A stretch of DNA of 60,354 nucleotides, from NCBI GenBank assembly GCA_964396875.1, contig CAYNHK010000004.1:1-60354 (forward strand), given 5' to 3'. Origin of the DNA: an uncultured Acidobacteriota bacterium (GTDB taxonomy: Bacteria; Acidobacteriota; Vicinamibacteria; Fen-336; JAGNNV01). Positions 51,483 through 59,122 of the stretch are shown in pieces. Both the position numbers and the translations under genes were made by a program. Under the pieces are notes generated by a model, which did not search any database, was not told where the DNA came from, and saw only the letters and a program-made list of their open reading frames with translations. Every line of letters starts with the position of its first letter. The stretch's first letter is position 1.

Positions 51483-53345
51483 GTGAGCGAGCAGATCGCG
51501 CCCGACGCCAACCCGCAGACCTTCGGCCGCAGATTCGGCACGGGACTTCTCGCCGCCGTGGCTCTGACCGTCCTCTTCGCCTCACTCCTCGGCGTGGCCG
51601 GGCGCTTCCGACAGCCCATCATCGTGGACATCGGGCCATCGACAGGGCGATACGGCTCCGGCTTCGAAGACAGCGAGGAGACGCCGCCCACAACCTCGCG
51701 TTGGACTCGGCACAGCGCTGCGCTCGACATACCGCTGAATGTCGCCAGTGGCCCGGTGCGTTTCTCGGTTCGCGCGGCCCGCTACCTGGACGATCCGACG
51801 CTGGTGAGCGTGGCTGTGAATGGAAAAGCGTTCACATCGTTCGAGCAGCCGCGCGGCCGCCAGCGGATCCAGGAAATCGAAGCGCCGCTGCCCGAAGGAC
51901 CGCTCAACCTCGAACTCACCAGCGAGGACCCCAGACTCGGAATGGCGCTCGACTGGATCCGCGTCGACGGCGCCCGCTGGAGCGTTCCCGTTGGCGAATG
52001 GACAGTGTGGGTGGTCCCCGTCGGGATCTTCGGCGCGCTGCTGCTCGGCGGCGCCTCGCTTCCCCTTGCCGGAGGGGCGACGACGTTGTTCCTGGTGGGA
52101 CTCGCCGGCTTTGCGGCCATCGACCCGTTTGGTTTCGTCCACAGCATGCGGGATGTCGCCGCGCCGACGATCGGGTTCTCAATCCTCGCCGCCCTCATCT
52201 TCCGGGGCCAGACCGCGGCGGTTCTCGCCATCACCGCCACTCTGCTCGTCAAGGGCGCCTTCCTCTTCCACCCGAGCTACTTCTACAACGACGTCCGCCA
52301 GAACGATCGTTATGTCGGCGCCCTGCGCAGTTACGAGGGGTCATTGATGGAACGATCAAGGCAGGCTCAGGTCGACCTGGGCGTCGGCTATCCGCGGATT
52401 GTCGCCGGGAAGAAGTACGCCTTCCCCTACTCTCCCGTCTTCTACCTTCCCTTCACCGCGCTGCCTCCCGACCGCGACATCGTGGTGCGGGCGATCAAAC
52501 ACGTGGCGTTGTTCGCGACCGCCGCCGAGGTGGCGCTCGCGTTCGTGCTGGCCCGGCTCCTTGTGCCTTCCGCGGCCGTGGCGGCGGCCTGGTTCACTTT
52601 CGCCTTTCCGATACTCACCAGCCGCATGTTGTACGCGATGTGGTCGACCCTCGCCGGGCACGCCCTGGATCTGCTCGTCGTGGTCCTGGCCGTGCGGGCC
52701 ATCCAGCGGCCCAAAGACTGGGGAGCTGTCGCGATGGTCTTCGCCGCGACCCTGGCGACTTTCCTGACTTACGTTTCAAGTCTCTTCAACACCAGCGCCT
52801 TCCTCCTTGCTCTGGCGCTCCTGGCGGTTTCGATCCGGTGGCGCGTCGTCGCGTTGTGGCTCGTCGCGGCGGTCGTCGTTGTGTTCGGGATGTACGGAGA
52901 TTTCACGCTCGCGTTCGTGCGCGAGATCGTGCCCGCGGTTGTCTCGGGGTCCGGCCAGACCACGACGGCCGCGCCAAATCAAGCCGGTTCACCGCTCGAG
53001 GCCTTCGCGCGGATCGTCCTGTTCGCGGGTTACGGCTTCCCGCTGTTCGCGCTTGCCGGTCTCCTCCTCATCGCTCGTCGGCACGACCCGGCCGCGATCA
53101 TCATGAAGGCGTATGCCCTGGCCTTCGTTTCGCTGGTGCTCCTTCGCGCCCTCTCCTTCGGTCTCTTCAAAGACCTCAAGGAAATCGAGTTCGCGGGACC
53201 CGCTTTCGCGATCCTGGCCGCGGTGGCCGTGGATCGAATCGACTCGGGCCTGGGTCGCCGGTTTGTCGCCCTGGGTCTCATCGCCACCGGTGTGTGGATG
53301 CAGTTCGGGCACTTCGAGAGGTGGTCGAGGCTCGTTCTTGGATAG
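51483..53345 (+). CDS. Polytopic membrane protein (~14-16 TM) with an N-terminal periplasmic domain; possible GT-C-fold glycosyltransferase
   Basis: GTG start. One TM, then a ~130-aa soluble beta-rich segment, then a dense run of hydrophobic helices. The context (epimerase + polyprenyl-P GT2) fits a GT-C enzyme, but no diagnostic motif was recognised. Confidence 0.6.
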   Translation: MSEQIAPDANPQTFGRRFGTGLLAAVALTVLFASLLGVAGRFRQPIIVDIGPSTGRYGSGFEDSEETPPTTSRWTRHSAALDIPLNVASGPVRFSVRAARYLDDPTLVSVAVNGKAFTSFEQPRGRQRIQEIEAPLPEGPLNLELTSEDPRLGMALDWIRVDGARWSVPVGEWTVWVVPVGIFGALLLGGASLPLAGGATTLFLVGLAGFAAIDPFGFVHSMRDVAAPTIGFSILAALIFRGQTAAVLAITATLLVKGAFLFHPSYFYNDVRQNDRYVGALRSYEGSLMERSRQAQVDLGVGYPRIVAGKKYAFPYSPVFYLPFTALPPDRDIVVRAIKHVALFATAAEVALAFVLARLLVPSAAVAAAWFTFAFPILTSRMLYAMWSTLAGHALDLLVVVLAVRAIQRPKDWGAVAMVFAATLATFLTYVSSLFNTSAFLLALALLAVSIRWRVVALWLVAAVVVVFGMYGDFTLAFVREIVPAVVSGSGQTTTAAPNQAGSPLEAFARIVLFAGYGFPLFALAGLLLIARRHDPAAIIMKAYALAFVSLVLLRALSFGLFKDLKEIEFAGPAFAILAAVAVDRIDSGLGRRFVALGLIATGVWMQFGHFERWSRLVLG

Positions 53346-53357
53346 AGTTCCCCCGCC

Positions 53358-54317
53358 ATGCCCGCGGTTCACATCGAAAACGCCACATTCGCCGTCACCG
53401 GAGGCTGCGGCTTCATCGGCGCGACCGTCGTCCGGCAGCTCCTCGACCAGGGGGCGGGGCGGATCGTGGTTCTCGACTCCCTCAAGGCCGGTCGGCGCGA
53501 GCGGCTTCCCGATGATGCTCGTCTCGTGGTCGTCGAAACCACGCTCGGGGATGTTCCCGTGGAAACGCTGGCCCGGCAATTCAAGGGCATCGACGGCGTC
53601 TTCCACCTGGCGGCGGAAAAACACCGGCCTTCCCTCGACTCTCCTCGCGAACTCGTCCTCACCAACGTGCTCGGAACGAACGATGTCATCGAAGCTGCCA
53701 GGGTCGCGGGAATTCACAAGCTCGTCTTCTCGTCGTCGCTCTACGCCTACGGCCGGATGTCGGGCGCCCCGATGGTCGAAACCGAGCCGTGCCATCCGCA
53801 CACCCTTTACGGCACTACCAAACTCGCGGGCGAGAACCTGGTCGAGGCCGCGTATCGCCGCGGTGACTTCGCCACGGTCTCCCTGCGCTACTTCTTCGTA
53901 TACGGGCCGAGGCAGTACGTGGGCACGGGTTACAAGAGTGTGGTGGTCTCGAACTTCGAACGGCTGCGGCGGAACGAACCTCCGATCATCCACGGCGATG
54001 GCGAACAGGCGCTTGACTACTCCCACGTGGACGACATCGCAAGAGCGACCATCCTCGCCATGTCGCGCGAAGCGAACGGCAAGGTTCTGAACGTGGGCTC
54101 GGGTCGGGCGCTCTCTGTGAATGAGCTGACCGCTGCCATGATGGAGGCGGCAGGCGCGCGATTCGAGCCGATCTTCGACGAGGCCGACAACACGGCGGGC
54201 AGCTGCCGGGTGGCGAACACGGGTCACGCCGAGAGCATGCTCGGTTTCCGCTCCCACATCCCCCTCGAAGAAGGCCTCAGATCCACATGGGAGTGGATCC
54301 GCACGCAGCCTTCGTGA
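53358..54317 (+). CDS. NAD-dependent sugar epimerase/dehydratase (extended SDR)
   Basis: Rossmann motif TGGCGFIG and catalytic YGTTK. 319 aa. Confidence 0.9.
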   Translation: MPAVHIENATFAVTGGCGFIGATVVRQLLDQGAGRIVVLDSLKAGRRERLPDDARLVVVETTLGDVPVETLARQFKGIDGVFHLAAEKHRPSLDSPRELVLTNVLGTNDVIEAARVAGIHKLVFSSSLYAYGRMSGAPMVETEPCHPHTLYGTTKLAGENLVEAAYRRGDFATVSLRYFFVYGPRQYVGTGYKSVVVSNFERLRRNEPPIIHGDGEQALDYSHVDDIARATILAMSREANGKVLNVGSGRALSVNELTAAMMEAAGARFEPIFDEADNTAGSCRVANTGHAESMLGFRSHIPLEEGLRSTWEWIRTQPS

Positions 54318-56512
54318 GTTCGGTCGAGCTCTCGGTCGTCGTCCCCTGCTACAACGAAGCGGGAAACCTGCCCGAACTGGTGGCCCGGCTGCGGAGCGTC
54401 TTCGACAAGAGGAAGGTCCGGGGGGAGATCGTCCTCGTGAACGACGGCAGCCGTGACGAGACCGGCAGCGTCATCGACGCCCTCGCGAAAACCCATCCCG
54501 AGGTGGTTCCCGTCCACCACGAAACGAACCGCGGTCTGGCCGCAGGCTGGGACTCGGGCGTCGCGAAAGCCACCGGCACCTACGTCTGTCTCATCGACGC
54601 GGACCTTCAGTATCAGCCCGAGGACGTGGGCCGGCTGCATCGGGAGTTGCTGCACACCCGCGTCGACATGGTCCAGGGATCGCGAAGCCTGATCGGGCGG
54701 CAGAGGGATTCGCGCTACCACCTCTCTCGCGGTCTCAACACGCTTCTCAACACGATGTTCGGGATGCGACTTCGCGACAACAAGTCGGGCTTCGTGATCG
54801 CCCGGCGAGAGACGCTCGCCGACATCCTTCATCGTCGGCTGAAATACGCTTACTTCCAGACCTTCATCGCGGTTTCCGCGCACGCGAAGGGCTACTCGAT
54901 CCGTGAGATCGAAACCGTGTTCGAGAACCGCCTGGTCGGCCAGAGCTTCATCCCGAGCTTTCCACTTCGCCTGATCGCTCGCGTCCTCACCGATCTCGCC
55001 AAAGGCTTCGTCGAATTCCGTCTCGCGCCCAAGCAGGAGAGCCTCGTCGCGGACTTTCTCTCCCGTCACCCGCCCTCCCGGACCGATCCCGAGATCTCGT
55101 GGTCGAGACGGCTGCGGCGCGCTGTCTACTTCCGGACGATGCCCCTGCATGCGTGGCTGCTGACCCGCCGCACCGAGCTTTACTACCGTGAACTGAAGCG
55201 CAGCCAGTGGCTGTCTCTCACGCAGATGCGCCTCCTTCAGGAGGAGAAGCTCCGGCGGCTGATCCGGCACGCCTATCACCACGTGGGCTATTACCGCGAG
55301 AGGATGGATGCGCTCGGCCTCAAGCCCGAAGACATCATGGGCCTCGCGGACATGGCGAAGCTTCCGCTCCTCGGCAAGGCGGATGTGCGCGAGAACCTCC
55401 ATTTCGACCTTCTCTCCGACAACCACGACAACGATCGCATCCTCCGCATCGCCACCTCGGGCTCAACCGGCGAGCCTTTCGTCTGCTACGCCGATCAGCA
55501 TCAGCTGGAAATCCGACTGGCCTCGACACTGCGCGCAATGGAGTGGACGGGCTGGCAGTTCGGGGACCGACAGGCGCGACTATGGCATCAGACCCTCGGT
55601 ATGAGCCGGTCCCAGGTCGCCAGAGAGCGCTTCGATGCGTGGCTCCTGCGCAGACTGTTCGTGCCCGCGTTCGAGATGTCCGAGGGCGCCATGGCCGCGT
55701 TCCTCGGTCGCCTGGCCGCGTTCGATCCGGTTCTGATCGACGGCTACGCGGAATCGTTCAATTACCTCGCGGGACACCTGGGCTCGGCGAAGAGCCGGCC
55801 CGGCCTCCGCCCGCGCGGCATCATCTCCTCCGCTCAGGCGCTGCCCGAGGAAAGTCGGCGGATCATCGAGGAGGCCTTCGGGGCGCGAGTGTTCGACAAA
55901 TACGGCAGCCGCGAGTTCTCCGGAATCGCCTACGAATGCGACGCGCACGAAGGCCATCACGTGATGGCCGAGAGCTACATCGTGGAGATCCTGAAGGACG
56001 GGCGTCCGGCCGCCCCCGGGGAGGTGGGCGAGGTGGTCATCACCGACCTCAACAACCTCTGCCTGCCTTTCATCCGTTACCGGGTCGGCGACCTGGCCGA
56101 GGCAATGGACGAGACGAAAGCGTGTCCTTGCGGCCGCGGCCTGCCCCGCGTTGGGCGCATCGAAGGTCGCGTCCAGTCGTTGGTGATCGGCGCGCATGGC
56201 CGCGTGATGCCCGGCACGTTCTTCTCGCACCTCTTCAAGGACTACGACTACCTCGTCCGCCAGTACCAGGTGGTGCAGGAGGAACGCGGCGCCATCGTCC
56301 TCAAGGTCGTCAAGGGCAGCCGATTCGCGCCTGACCTGTTCGAGCGGGAGATCCTCTCCGTGCTGCGCCAGTACCTCGGTGAGGAAACACGTATCGACGT
56401 TCAGTTCGTAGACCTCATCCCCCTCGTGCGGACCGGCAAGAGACAGGCGGTGATCTCGAAGCTGAGTCTCGATTTCCAGAAACTCCAGTATCCCGATACT
56501 CCCAAACCATGA
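54287..56512 (+). CDS. Fusion: GT2 polyprenyl-phosphate glycosyltransferase (DPM1/ArnC-like) + CapK/PaaK-like adenylate-forming enzyme
   Basis: N-terminal part: LSVVVPCYNEAGNL...VNDGSRDET...DADLQYQPED (DAD at nt 54596-54604). C-terminal part: phenylacetate-CoA-ligase/CapK pattern with the AMP motif TSGSTGEP (nt 55454-55477). The start may be GTG at 54314, which overlaps the epimerase stop as GTGA. Confidence 0.82.
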   Translation: MGVDPHAAFVSSVELSVVVPCYNEAGNLPELVARLRSVFDKRKVRGEIVLVNDGSRDETGSVIDALAKTHPEVVPVHHETNRGLAAGWDSGVAKATGTYVCLIDADLQYQPEDVGRLHRELLHTRVDMVQGSRSLIGRQRDSRYHLSRGLNTLLNTMFGMRLRDNKSGFVIARRETLADILHRRLKYAYFQTFIAVSAHAKGYSIREIETVFENRLVGQSFIPSFPLRLIARVLTDLAKGFVEFRLAPKQESLVADFLSRHPPSRTDPEISWSRRLRRAVYFRTMPLHAWLLTRRTELYYRELKRSQWLSLTQMRLLQEEKLRRLIRHAYHHVGYYRERMDALGLKPEDIMGLADMAKLPLLGKADVRENLHFDLLSDNHDNDRILRIATSGSTGEPFVCYADQHQLEIRLASTLRAMEWTGWQFGDRQARLWHQTLGMSRSQVARERFDAWLLRRLFVPAFEMSEGAMAAFLGRLAAFDPVLIDGYAESFNYLAGHLGSAKSRPGLRPRGIISSAQALPEESRRIIEEAFGARVFDKYGSREFSGIAYECDAHEGHHVMAESYIVEILKDGRPAAPGEVGEVVITDLNNLCLPFIRYRVGDLAEAMDETKACPCGRGLPRVGRIEGRVQSLVIGAHGRVMPGTFFSHLFKDYDYLVRQYQVVQEERGAIVLKVVKGSRFAPDLFEREILSVLRQYLGEETRIDVQFVDLIPLVRTGKRQAVISKLSLDFQKLQYPDTPKP

Positions 56513-56542: not shown

Positions 56543-57907
56543 ATGAAGCTGGCAAAGACGATTCTTGGACTTTCCCTGGCCGCGGCCATGGCGCCGCCCG
56601 CCCCCGCGGCGACCGCTGTGATCATGCCGGCGAAACTTCCCTCCCTGCGCGAGCAGGACGCGATCCGCCAGGAGTGGCTGAAGCTCCGGCTGGAACGTGT
56701 GCTTCCAACACTGATGCGGCGGCACGGCGTTTCGATGTGGCTGGTGATCAATCGGGAGTACAACGAAGACCCGGTGTTCCGATCGCTGATCTCGCCTTCG
56801 GTGATGTACGCCCGTCGGCGGACGATCCTGGTCTTCTTCGACCGGGGTGGCGACAAGGGGATCGAACGCCTCGCCCTGGGCGGCGGCACGAACGGGGGTC
56901 TTTACGAGATGTACCGCGATCCGGACAACGCCGGCCGCGAGATCATGGGCGATTCGCAGTGGCAGACGCTGCGCAAGGTCATCGAGCAGAGGAAGCCGAG
57001 CACGATCGCGATCAACGTCTCTCATACGCACGCCTTCTCTGACGGCCTGTCTGCAGGCGAACGGGAGCAGCTCGAATCGGCGCTTGGCCCATGGACCTCG
57101 AAACTGGTGCGCGCGGAGAACCTGCCGCTCGAGTACATCTCCGTGCGTCTGCCGGAGATGGAGCCCCATTACGTCGCGATGATGAAGACCGTCCACGCTC
57201 TCATCGCTCGCGCTTTCTCGAACGAGGTCATCACTCCGGCGAAGACCACGACGAAAGACGTCGAGTGGTGGCTGCGCCAGACCGTCAACGACATGGGCCT
57301 TGGCGAGTGGTTCCCTCCGACCGTCTCCGTACAGCGACCGGAGCGGCAGGCGACAGAGTTCGCGGCGACAGCGCGTCCCGCGGCCGAGGTAATTCAGCGG
57401 GGTGACCACCTCCACGTCGACTTCGGTATCTACGCGATGGGCCTCGCTACCGATACCCAGCACGTGGGCTATGTGCTCAAGGAGGGCGAGAAGGATGTGC
57501 CCGCCGGGCTTCAAAAAGCGCTCGCCAACTCGAATCGCATGCAGGACATCGCGTTTGAAGAGATGCGGCCGGGCCGAAGCGGCAACGAAGTCCTCGCCTC
57601 GATGCTCGCGCAGATGAAGAAGGAAGGCATCGAAGGCACGATGTACACGCATCCGGTCAACGATTACGGCCACGGCGCCGGTCCGCTCATCGGCCTCTGG
57701 GACCGCCAGGAGGGCGTGCCTGGCCGCGGTGATGTGCTCCTCCTCCCGAGCACCTGGTTCTCGATCGAGCTGCAGGCCACCACTGCCGTACCGGAATGGG
57801 GCGGACAGCGGGTGCGCTCCGCGCAGGAGGAGGACGCGATCCTCGGCCCGGAAGGAAAGATGCGCTGGGTGTTGAGCCGCCAGACGAAGTACCACCTCGT
57901 CAAGTAA
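56543..57907 (+). CDS. Exported M24-family metallopeptidase (Xaa-Pro aminopeptidase/creatinase-like)
   Basis: Signal peptide MKLAKTILGLSLAAAMA. A pita-bread-type metal-ligand spacing is suggested by HLHVDFG...ATDTQH...HPVNDYGHG...SIELQ...QEED. Confidence 0.8.
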   Translation: MKLAKTILGLSLAAAMAPPAPAATAVIMPAKLPSLREQDAIRQEWLKLRLERVLPTLMRRHGVSMWLVINREYNEDPVFRSLISPSVMYARRRTILVFFDRGGDKGIERLALGGGTNGGLYEMYRDPDNAGREIMGDSQWQTLRKVIEQRKPSTIAINVSHTHAFSDGLSAGEREQLESALGPWTSKLVRAENLPLEYISVRLPEMEPHYVAMMKTVHALIARAFSNEVITPAKTTTKDVEWWLRQTVNDMGLGEWFPPTVSVQRPERQATEFAATARPAAEVIQRGDHLHVDFGIYAMGLATDTQHVGYVLKEGEKDVPAGLQKALANSNRMQDIAFEEMRPGRSGNEVLASMLAQMKKEGIEGTMYTHPVNDYGHGAGPLIGLWDRQEGVPGRGDVLLLPSTWFSIELQATTAVPEWGGQRVRSAQEEDAILGPEGKMRWVLSRQTKYHLVK

Positions 57908-57940: not shown

Positions 57941-59122
57941 ATGGGAGAGCCTCCGGACCCGCAGAGCGCGCGAGCGATCCGCGGTTTCGTCGCGCCTCGC
58001 ACTCTCCTCAACGAAGTGCAGAACACGGCGCCCTGGTTGCCTGCTCCCCGCGAGGCGCCTTCGGGCGACGTGCGGGCGATGGCGGGCGGGCCGCTTGGAT
58101 TCCTGAGCATCCTCGCGGGGTTCCGCCAGAAAGGAGCCGCCGAACAGGCCCTGGCGAACGATCGGACCCTCGACTATTTCGGTCTCTGCCTCGCTTGTCA
58201 TCACGCCACCGTCGCGACATTCGTGCCTACGGATGTCGACACGAAGATCCGGGGTCTCCTTTGGCGCCTGATCAAGGACCCGGCCCAACTCGACCCGGTG
58301 ATCGAACTGACCGAGGCCTTTTGCTCCTGGGATGTCGGGTCGGTTTCGCGTCGCACGGTGGCCGCGGAAGGCCTGGGCCTTTTTGCCGGCCATCACGGCG
58401 AGCGACTCTCCGTTCTGGTCGCGGCTCTCGGCCGAGCGATTCATCTGGGACGGACCGACCTTGAAGGTCGGCTGCGCGGTCACATCGTGGCCGAACTCGA
58501 ACGCGAGTCCTTGGGACTGAATGTTCTGCTTCAGGCAAGGAACGAACTCGACGTGCTCCGAATGGCCGCGGTCATGACACACAACGCCGGCGATATCGAT
58601 CAATCGATCTCGTTCTGGCCCCAGTCTCCCGCGCATACCTCCGCGGCTTCGGACATCAAGCGCCTCGCCCACGAAAATGTCCGCCCCTGGGGCGGCAGCT
58701 TTGCCCTGGCCGCGCGTATCTACAAGGCGACACTCGCACCCGAAGGCCACCGGAACTACCCACTTCGACCCGTCAAGTGCCTGCGTCAGTCCTTCGATTT
58801 CCTGATCGAGACCGCGCCGTTTCTCGACGACTGGGGTGAGAGGGTCGCGCGCGATCCGCGGCTTGAAGACGCCGACCGCAGTGAGGTTCTCGAAGCCCTT
58901 GTGATCGGGTCGCGCAAGATCGATGGCCAACGCGGATATCAACGGGCCGTCGCGGGAATGCTCCAGGGCCTCGGCAACCGAACGGAAAGTGTCGTGGCAA
59001 AGATGTCGGCGCGGGCCCGGAGCGAGTTCAAGTCGGCGGACCTTCGAAAGTCGGTGGCGGTGCCCCGCGTGTCTTTCGAGTCGTCGATGAAATCGATGCT
59101 CCGCAAGGTCCTGGATTCCTGA
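57941..59122 (+). CDS. Hypothetical cytoplasmic protein, 393 aa, no recognised domain
   Basis: No signal peptide, balanced mostly helical composition, GC3-rich codons. Contains CLACHH and several conserved-looking His residues. Family not recognised. Confidence 0.55.
   Translation: MGEPPDPQSARAIRGFVAPRTLLNEVQNTAPWLPAPREAPSGDVRAMAGGPLGFLSILAGFRQKGAAEQALANDRTLDYFGLCLACHHATVATFVPTDVDTKIRGLLWRLIKDPAQLDPVIELTEAFCSWDVGSVSRRTVAAEGLGLFAGHHGERLSVLVAALGRAIHLGRTDLEGRLRGHIVAELERESLGLNVLLQARNELDVLRMAAVMTHNAGDIDQSISFWPQSPAHTSAASDIKRLAHENVRPWGGSFALAARIYKATLAPEGHRNYPLRPVKCLRQSFDFLIETAPFLDDWGERVARDPRLEDADRSEVLEALVIGSRKIDGQRGYQRAVAGMLQGLGNRTESVVAKMSARARSEFKSADLRKSVAVPRVSFESSMKSMLRKVLDS

Follow-up and report, generated by a model that had tools for sequence, protein, structure and literature searches.

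The window analysed here is the whole 60,354-nucleotide stretch of contig CAYNHK010000004.1 (GenBank assembly GCA_964396875.1), which derives from an uncultured bacterium of the class Vicinamibacteria, phylum Acidobacteriota. It contains a run of five genes, all on the forward strand, which encode, in this order, a 620-residue membrane protein, a short-chain dehydrogenase/reductase (SDR), a two-domain protein designated here as the fusion, an exported protein with an M24 fold, and an uncharacterized 393-residue protein. Neighboring genes in the run are separated by approximately 30 nucleotides or less, or overlap. The fusion joins a glycosyltransferase family 2 (GT2) domain of the polyprenyl-phosphate type to a CapK/PaaK-type adenylate-forming ligase domain. 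A sequence-only reading of this DNA had described it as one polypeptide combining a DPM1/ArnC-like GT2 with a CapK/PaaK-like adenylating enzyme, and the intact open reading frame (ORF), the Pfam and NCBIfam domains and the colinear homologues presented below bear this description out. The motifs that it quoted were all found (VVPCYNE at residues 18–24, NDGSRDET at 52–59, DAD within DADLQ at 104–108, and TSGSTGEP at 390–397). The fusion has the following features, with the basis of each assignment in brackets.

54287..56512, +, whole fusion ORF, 741 amino acids (732 if translation starts at GTG 54314) (ORF call, colinear homologues, AlphaFold2 (AF2) model)
54320..54964, +, GT-A catalytic domain of the polyprenyl-phosphate GT2 type, residues 12–226 (PF00535, PDB sequence matches, Foldseek)
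54596–54610, +, DADLQ (GT2 motif)
54677–54715, +, arginine cluster R133/R138/R143 (GT2 motif)
54776–54793, +, DNKSGF (GT2 motif)
54923–54946, +, R215-x2-G-x-S (GT2 motif)
54965..55204, +, predicted second juxtamembrane-type amphipathic helix and structured helical junction, residues 227–306 (model, alignment)
55205..56491, +, CapK/PaaK-type adenylate-forming ligase domain, residues 307–735 (NCBIfam, PDB matches to PaaK, Foldseek)
55454–55477, +, P-loop TSGSTGEP, A3 (ligase motif)
55895–55924, +, DKYGSREFSG, with YGSRE (A5) at residues 539–543 (ligase motif)
55931–55960 and 56123–56140, +, Cys/His cluster C551/H554/H558 and C613/C615 (alignment)
56039–56050, +, TD, A7, residues 586–587 (ligase motif)
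56075–56092, +, RYRVGD, A8, with RYRxGD at residues 597–602 (ligase motif)
56429–56443, +, RTGKR with the A10 lysine, GK at residues 717–718 (ligase motif)

Integrity and translation start of the fusion gene

The ORF is uninterrupted over 741 codons, from an ATG start to a TGA stop. G+C content at third codon positions (GC3) is 0.74–0.90 in the frame of the ORF along the entire gene, and the AF2 model of the single chain has a predicted local distance difference test score (pLDDT) of 85.4 and a predicted template modelling score (pTM) of 0.82. The sequence-only reading had advised a check for a frameshift or stop codon hidden at 55000–55200; none is present, GC3 stays in frame throughout, and the length of the junction between the two halves is fixed in 37 homologues.

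The stop codon of the SDR gene (54315–54317) falls within the 5′ end of the fusion. A start at ATG 54287 gives a 31-nucleotide overlap between the two genes, while with GTG 54314 start and stop overlap as GTGA and the product has 732 residues, a length that is frequent among the homologues; judged by this arrangement, translation may begin at GTG 54314 instead of ATG 54287.

The source genome is fragmented (459 contigs, 88% completeness), which would be in keeping with an assembly or frameshift artefact or with a decaying gene. However, the identical architecture occurs in hundreds of independent assemblies, closed genomes among them, the coding signal is unbroken across the gene, the catalytic residues are invariant in both halves, and the single-chain model is confident. 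We rejected an assembly or frameshift artefact on the strength of the shared architecture and the continuous coding signal. The probability of artefact or decay is practically nil, this reading being already effectively refuted, and we regard the fusion with high confidence as a real bifunctional enzyme.

Distribution of the fusion family

Searched against 5.8 billion proteins, the fusion had more than 120 full-length colinear homologues of 720–780 residues (60–93% identity), and a second scan, covering one genome per species, found relatives in at least 183 species; over both searches, the colinear homologues span 55–97% identity. Precomputed Pfam domains of the homologues are PF00535 and PF27533 (CapK_C). 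Carriers include Vicinamibacteria, other Acidobacteriota and many Polyangia, among them cultured Sorangium and Polyangium whose genomes are closed, and the fusion also occurs in single metagenome-assembled genomes (MAGs) of Nitrospiraceae, Verrucomicrobiota, Rokubacteria, Bdellovibrionota and Terriglobia. The arrangement is thus neither rare nor unique to one genome, since at least 183 species carry it. A full-text literature search gave no description of the fusion, in agreement with the earlier impression that the architecture is uncharacterized, and the database labels of the homologues read just "glycosyltransferase" or "phenylacetate-CoA ligase". The family is large, conserved and already in public databases; it is unstudied, not unseen.

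Of 301 genomes of Acidobacteriota, four encode a protein of the fused type with at least 55% identity. Standalone CapK-like proteins come next with 42% or less, and this gap in sequence identity sets the fused type sharply apart as its own orthogroup in the phylum. The same survey did not find the fused type in the sampled genomes of the window's own order. The genome of the window carries one CapK-like gene only.

The two activities also occur as separate proteins, as the sequence-only reading had stated, each half being known in standalone form elsewhere. We saw no split version, with a separate GT2 gene beside a separate CapK gene, that would provide Rosetta-stone support. A GT4 gene comes after the closest standalone CapK (42% identity), and the standalone GT2 relatives sit on other contigs than the CapK-like genes. 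A maximum-likelihood tree of the GT2 halves did not resolve a single from a multiple origin of the fusion, and its "standalone" class is contaminated by truncated metagenomic calls.

An acidobacterial orthologue (L101) lies in a 1396-residue open frame that could be taken for a triple fusion. We rejected this as read-through in GC-rich DNA: the GT2 begins at residue 666, and the true upstream gene is in a different frame. Two other carrier contigs (L013 and L067), labelled as Candidatus Saccharibacteria and Blastochloridaceae, encode proteins 56–65% identical to that of the window; these labels on short MAG contigs may reflect mis-binning rather than true hosts.

The glycosyltransferase half

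Pfam places Glycos_transf_2 at residues 16–171 (E = 8.9e-31), and the NCBIfam model for ArnC, PRK10714, matches residues 14–222 (E = 1e-19). GtrB, DPMS and ArnC are the three solved polyprenyl-phosphate GT2 enzymes, and the same three are the nearest solved structures by sequence. They are also the first non-ligase matches in a Foldseek search, in the order ArnC (9asc; 234 columns, 2.5 Å), GtrB and DPMS. Foldseek alignments of the fusion to ArnC and GtrB reach approximately 281 columns.

The key residues of this class are kept. In GtrB and ArnC, the DxD followed by Q is the metal-binding and catalytic motif, and arginines after β5, together with one in the loop between β7 and the second juxtamembrane helix (JM2), hold undecaprenyl phosphate (PMC12698845; 10.1101/2025.01.29.634835). 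In the fusion, D104, D106 and Q108 of DADLQ are invariant in 37 homologues, and R133, R138, R143, R215, G218, S220 and DNKSGF are invariant in the alignment of the fusion family. At the sequence level, with DxD spacing and a HMMER alignment to DPMS as guides, R133/R138/R143/R215 line up with R122/R125/K132/R197 of GtrB and R128/R131/R137/R205 of ArnC. The model places helices 142–158 and 227–246 at the positions of the juxtamembrane helices of the class; their hydrophobic moments (1.30 and 1.45, respectively) are not above those of ordinary surface helices of the same protein.

A difference from the solved enzymes lies behind the catalytic domain. No 19-residue window of the fusion exceeds a Kyte-Doolittle value of 1.6 (maximum, 1.19), whereas 99 windows of the 620-residue membrane protein, used as a control, do so. 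The transmembrane hairpin of ArnC and GtrB is absent, and its place is taken by the junction, which the model builds from helices 227–246, 253–260, 272–283 and 295–306. Aligned over 37 homologues from several phyla, the 80 residues of the junction (227–306) fill 81 columns, essentially without insertions or deletions, and W290 within the junction is invariant. The designation "DPM1/ArnC-like GT2" holds, with the correction that the hairpin of ArnC and GtrB is lacking.

An exhaustive profile search with residues 1–262 returned, as nearest relatives, either fused proteins of approximately 700–750 residues or standalone proteins of approximately 240–280 residues. The standalone relatives (45–55% identity, approximately 245 residues) terminate just after the second juxtamembrane helix. 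One of these transmembrane-free standalone GT2 genes, in an acidobacterial genome, lies between genes for a Wzx-type flippase and a PMT-type glycosyltransferase of the GT-C fold. By sequence, the GT2 half of the fusion belongs to a transmembrane-free clade and is not a typical member of its class. We consider it quite probable that it synthesizes donors for GT-C enzymes.

The ligase half

The match of Pfam AMP-binding to residues 382–586 is weak. The NCBIfam models for PaaK, DVU_1553 and FlxY ligases cover residues 296–696 with E-values of 1e-30 to 7e-42. In Foldseek, BT_0428 and PaaK1/2 were matched at E-values of 1e-26 to 6e-28 over approximately 435 columns with a TM(target) of 0.63–0.67, and further matches were HCL, AjiA1, NatL2 and ClxA. 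Scores stay far under the PaaK equivalog cut-offs (126.2 versus 646.3 bits for TIGR02155; 132.9 versus 700 for NF041878), and because these thresholds are not reached, the label "phenylacetate-CoA ligase" on the homologues is an over-annotation. In fact, the fusion widely misses all NCBIfam equivalog cut-offs, including that of ArnC (70.8 bits against 529). The domain description given by the sequence-only reading is thus right, yet the fusion is an orthologue of neither ArnC nor PaaK.

Among the fusions, the motifs A3, A5, A7 and A8 and the lysine of A10 vary little or not at all, and standalone CapK-like relatives have them too. From the retention and invariance of all adenylation motifs, the ligase half is almost certainly an active adenylate-forming enzyme. 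Not every relative passes its adenylate to CoA: NatL2, AjiA1 and ClxA join adenylates directly to hydroxyl or amine groups.

The cysteine and histidine cluster, which reads E-C551...H554...H558 and C613-x-C615-G-R, is common to fused and standalone CapK-like proteins. In one fused orthologue (L089), the three cysteines are lost together, with D in place of C551 and TTASGS in place of CPCGRG; this joint loss suggests that the cluster is a dispensable structural metal site.

As a separate observation, five standalone CapK-like genes lie within approximately 12 kb of an acidobacterial genome (G046:C20:10597-22176), which hints that polysaccharide loci can hold several different ligases.

Upstream genes and loci in other lineages

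The two genes upstream of the fusion are as follows.

51483..53345, +, 620-residue polytopic membrane protein with a GT-C fold and a periplasmic β-sandwich resembling carbohydrate-binding modules (CBMs) CBM6/35 at residues ~46–162 (AF2, Foldseek)
53358..54317, +, extended-SDR gene resembling nucleotide-sugar 4-epimerases, overlapping the 5′ end of the fusion (Pfam Epimerase, E = 4.7e-47)

The nearest solved structures to the SDR are TmGalE (4zrm) and then MoeE5 (6kv9). Although MoeE5 is the second-best structure, an assignment as UDP-glucuronate 4-epimerase is not supported, the RPDM that follows YGP in MoeE5 being missing here. An assignment as 4,6-dehydratase is unlikely, as the Asp-Glu pair is absent. 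The SDR gene overlaps the start of the fusion in the window and at six other loci (L001, L002/L003, L084, L085, L086 and the P0045 locus). The genome of the window contains two genes of the UDP-sugar 6-dehydrogenase family.

The 620-residue protein has no Pfam or NCBIfam match, and its family of approximately 142 members, mostly from Vicinamibacteria, contains none that is annotated. Its AF2 model (pLDDT, 86.2; pTM, 0.87) shows an N-terminal transmembrane helix ahead of the β-sandwich. The membrane part matches GT-C enzymes only in Foldseek (STT3, ArnT 5f15, AftA and AglB), and the β-sandwich matches CBM6/CBM35 modules. BLASTP detected no similarity between this protein and PMT_2 or the other neighbors of approximately 600 residues. 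Its GT-C nature is drawn from the predicted fold alone, and on that model it is a probable user of a lipid-linked sugar, with D214 (in DPFGF) and D270 (in YFYNDVR) as candidate catalytic acids. Several of the CBM35 structures matched by the β-sandwich are complexes with uronic acids.

Counts of neighborhoods in other genomes come from a crude ORF caller in GC-rich DNA and are supported by properly called genes at seven loci. The locus of a 65%-identical relative (P0045) encodes a 614-residue member of the 620-residue family at the same position, directly after a Wzx gene, and another locus (L085) has a Wzx-type gene nearby. Elsewhere, different GT-C proteins stand beside the fusion, such as PMT_2 in L001 and GT87 in L104, and 14 of 40 further large polytopic neighbors belong to the PMT_2, GT87, YfhO, DUF6798 or ALG3 families. 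Many loci lie within O-antigen or exopolysaccharide clusters (Wzm/Wzt, Wzx, GT4s, NeuB) or next to LpxB-MsbA-KdtA. In the P0084 lineage, a module of SDR, fusion and methyltransferase genes (L002:12897-18304) is found a few kb from LpxB, MsbA and a Kdo transferase and adjoins an AsmA-family gene; lipid A or its core would fit as the target there. Methyltransferase genes adjoin the fusion in several non-Polyangia lineages as well. In Polyangia, a DUF362 gene of approximately 480 residues directly follows the fusion at L064:9180-10622 and at about 25 other loci; DUF362 has only a clan-level Pfam link to the N-domain of LarA-type racemases.

Proposed function and alternatives

GT-C enzymes take their sugars from polyprenyl-phosphate-linked donors, and three-component systems combine an unchanging donor synthase with a transferase that differs according to the acceptor. 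The constant ArnC/GtrB-type GT2 beside non-orthologous GT-Cs points to a decoration system of this type. In our proposal, the fusion would sit at the inner face of the cytoplasmic membrane and feed the decoration of a periplasmic glycan. The transmembrane-free GT2 half would first load undecaprenyl phosphate with one sugar, as homology, conserved residues and context suggest; the nucleotide sugar that donates it would probably come from the SDR 4-epimerase encoded by the overlapping gene upstream. The ligase half would then use ATP to form an acyl-adenylate that is captured by a nucleophile, CoA not necessarily being used; the adenylation motifs and the precedent of VpsH speak for this step. 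Its most likely substrate would be the lipid-linked sugar itself, and the likeliest reaction would be activation of a carboxylate on this sugar (a uronic acid) and amide formation with an amine or amino acid. Finally, the tailored lipid-linked sugar would be flipped, and a GT-C enzyme (in the window, the 620-residue protein encoded two genes upstream) would transfer the sugar onto a glycan of the envelope, for instance lipopolysaccharide, O-antigen or exopolysaccharide, as judged from context and fold.

A genetic study of 2026 showed that V. cholerae needs the PaaK/CapK-like protein VpsH to have glycine in amide linkage on the L-GulNAcA carboxylate while this sugar is part of a bactoprenyl-linked intermediate (PMC13463779). 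VpsH is the only functional precedent that we found, and on its example, activation of a carboxylate of the newly made lipid-linked sugar, followed by coupling to an amine, is the most likely reaction of the fused ligase. The sequence-only reading had proposed channelling between a lipid-linked sugar and an ATP-activated carboxylate; the underlying idea, that such a carboxylate is coupled to a lipid-linked sugar, fits the GT-C neighbors and the genetics of VpsH and is something that we infer. As for the full three-step explanation, we consider it evenly poised between right and wrong. Uronic-acid amidation is its weakest link, because the SDR is not tied to uronic acids and the conserved neighbors include no gene for a dehydrogenase or for supplying an amine.

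Several observations weigh against this explanation. The fusion is without the two transmembrane helices and the tetramer elements common to all three solved polyprenyl-phosphate glycosyltransferases. The SDR, whose best match is a UDP-hexose 4-epimerase and which lacks the RPDM of MoeE5, is not assignable to uronic-acid chemistry, and it is found within 7 kb of the fusion in just 36 of 83 loci. Polyangia are often without it and instead have an S-adenosylmethionine-dependent methyltransferase gene upstream and a DUF362 gene downstream of the fusion. In the survey of 7-kb loci, neither a UDP-sugar dehydrogenase nor an aminotransferase or another amine-supplying gene was among the conserved neighbors, and the Pfam scan recognized no flippase among the neighbors in the window.

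The same evidence bears on other readings of the two halves. The ligase half could adenylate a free small acid (amino, hydroxy, aromatic or fatty) and move the acyl group to a hydroxyl or amino group of the lipid-linked sugar, which would then act as nucleophile and not supply the activated carboxylate, giving an O- or N-acylated donor. The characterized enzymes of the PaaK family do activate free acids (PaaK, HCL, NatL2, AjiA1 and ClxA), nothing in the SDR points positively to uronic-acid chemistry, and a transient N-acyl group on the sugar can go with lipid loading in the Arn pathway. We nevertheless regard this as unlikely, in that neither an amino-sugar aminotransferase nor an acid-supplying enzyme is conserved nearby and VpsH, the sole CapK-like precedent in a glycan pathway, amidates the sugar's own carboxylate. 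It is also conceivable that the order is reversed, with the ligase modifying a soluble nucleotide sugar (e.g., UDP-uronic acid to UDP-uronamide) before the GT2 loads the lipid. A fused protein would favor hand-over in this direction equally well, a soluble substrate is plausible for an enzyme without a transmembrane anchor, and the Arn sugar is modified at the UDP stage ahead of ArnC; set against this is the action of VpsH on a lipid-linked intermediate, and we take the reversed order to be distinctly unlikely.

Another reading is that the GT2 half is not a polyprenyl-phosphate transferase but serves to build a glycoconjugate that is soluble or non-isoprenoid (for example, a glycosylated small acid, the precursor of a natural product or a compatible solute), with the ligase supplying or processing the acceptor. 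The missing transmembrane hairpin, the great breadth of the GT2 family, weak NCBIfam matches to glucosyl-3-phosphoglycerate synthase and other non-lipid GT2s, and the Polyangia loci that often show no obvious GT-C or SDR within 7 kb would all agree with this. The top fold and sequence neighbors, however, are exclusively polyprenyl-phosphate glycosyltransferases, the arginines for the phosphate of undecaprenyl phosphate and the predicted juxtamembrane helices are conserved, GT-C neighbors of at least five families recur, and the loci lie in surface-polysaccharide clusters, which leaves this reading very unlikely in our judgement.

Comparison with known systems

The fusion shares with ArnC, GtrB and DPMS the GT-A fold, the DxDxQ motif, the arginines after β5 and in the β7-JM2 loop and the partnership with GT-C enzymes; helices are predicted where the two juxtamembrane helices of the class lie. 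Unlike the fusion, these enzymes have a C-terminal transmembrane hairpin and form an eight-helix tetramer core; the fusion has a 440-residue adenylating domain instead. The standalone transmembrane-free GT2s of approximately 245 residues likewise consist of a GT-A domain and juxtamembrane helices with no membrane anchor, and they end where the fusion runs on into the helical junction and the ligase. A comparable transmembrane-free GT2 is the eukaryote-type (human) DPM1.

VpsH and other CapK-like proteins resemble the ligase half in having a PaaK/CapK-like adenylating fold within a surface-glycan pathway; standalone CapK-like proteins also have the E-C...CxCGR cysteines, and the homologues of the fusion carry the CapK_C domain. 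Whereas VpsH and CapK are standalone and belong to Wzx/Wzy assembly of repeat units on a pyrophosphate-linked oligosaccharide, the ligase of the fusion is joined to the presumed synthase of a monophosphate-linked sugar. VpsH, whose function is known only from genetics, serves as a mechanistic analogy for the ligase half, not as a family assignment. PaaK, NatL2, AjiA1 and ClxA have the same two-subdomain ANL fold and adenylation motifs, but the fusion differs from PaaK in that it is not an orthologue, is fused to a GT2 and has no phenylacetate catabolic context.

At the level of the pathway, GtrA/B/C, ArnC/ArnT/ArnEF, CsbB/YfhO/GtcA and RgtE/RgtA-D follow the same logic of synthase, flippase and periplasmic GT-C; the fusion differs in that its presumed synthase bears an extra ATP-dependent tailoring domain, which to our knowledge is undescribed in any three-component system. 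The Arn pathway shares just the general logic of a GT2 followed by a GT-C. It involves the chemistry of ArnA (decarboxylase/formyltransferase), ArnB (aminotransferase) and ArnD (deformylase), whereas the epimerase-like SDR beside the fusion has no formyltransferase domain and the conserved neighbors include neither an aminotransferase nor a deformylase; the fusion loci are not an Arn pathway.

Three-component decoration of lipid A, O-antigens, teichoic acids and exopolysaccharides governs antibiotic and phage susceptibility as well as surface charge. In every such system that we know to have been described, the lipid-linked donor is a plain sugar or is trimmed afterwards. That the fusion family is the first known case in which a monosaccharide donor on polyprenyl monophosphate is chemically tailored with ATP by the very synthase that makes it is a tentative notion that we hold to be possible but doubtful. 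If the proposal were true, soil Acidobacteriota, Polyangia and members of several other phyla would decorate their lipopolysaccharide or exopolysaccharide with an amide-capped sugar, carrying for instance an amino acid or an amine, an unseen route to tuning the charge of the cell surface whose logic would resemble aminoarabinose addition while its chemistry would differ. It would add a new step, ATP-driven amide or ester formation on a carrier-bound sugar, and would predict unknown modifications of envelope sugars in abundant but little-studied soil phyla. A large family labelled "glycosyltransferase" or, wrongly, "phenylacetate-CoA ligase" gains a concrete and testable function, and as a natural fused partner the fusion could help to define the roles of CapK/VpsH-type ligases. 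The cultured carriers Sorangium and Polyangium make the family experimentally accessible.

Downstream genes

The run closes with two genes downstream of the fusion.

56543..57907, +, exported M24-fold protein with a signal-peptide-like N-terminus (Pfam Peptidase_M24, E = 3e-13)
57941..59122, +, 393-residue protein without a Pfam match

Both are syntenic downstream of the fusion in related Vicinamibacteria, the 393-residue protein at seven loci and the M24-fold protein at eight. If the fusion forms amides, a periplasmic M24 hydrolase encoded beside it could serve to shorten or cleave off the group that it adds.

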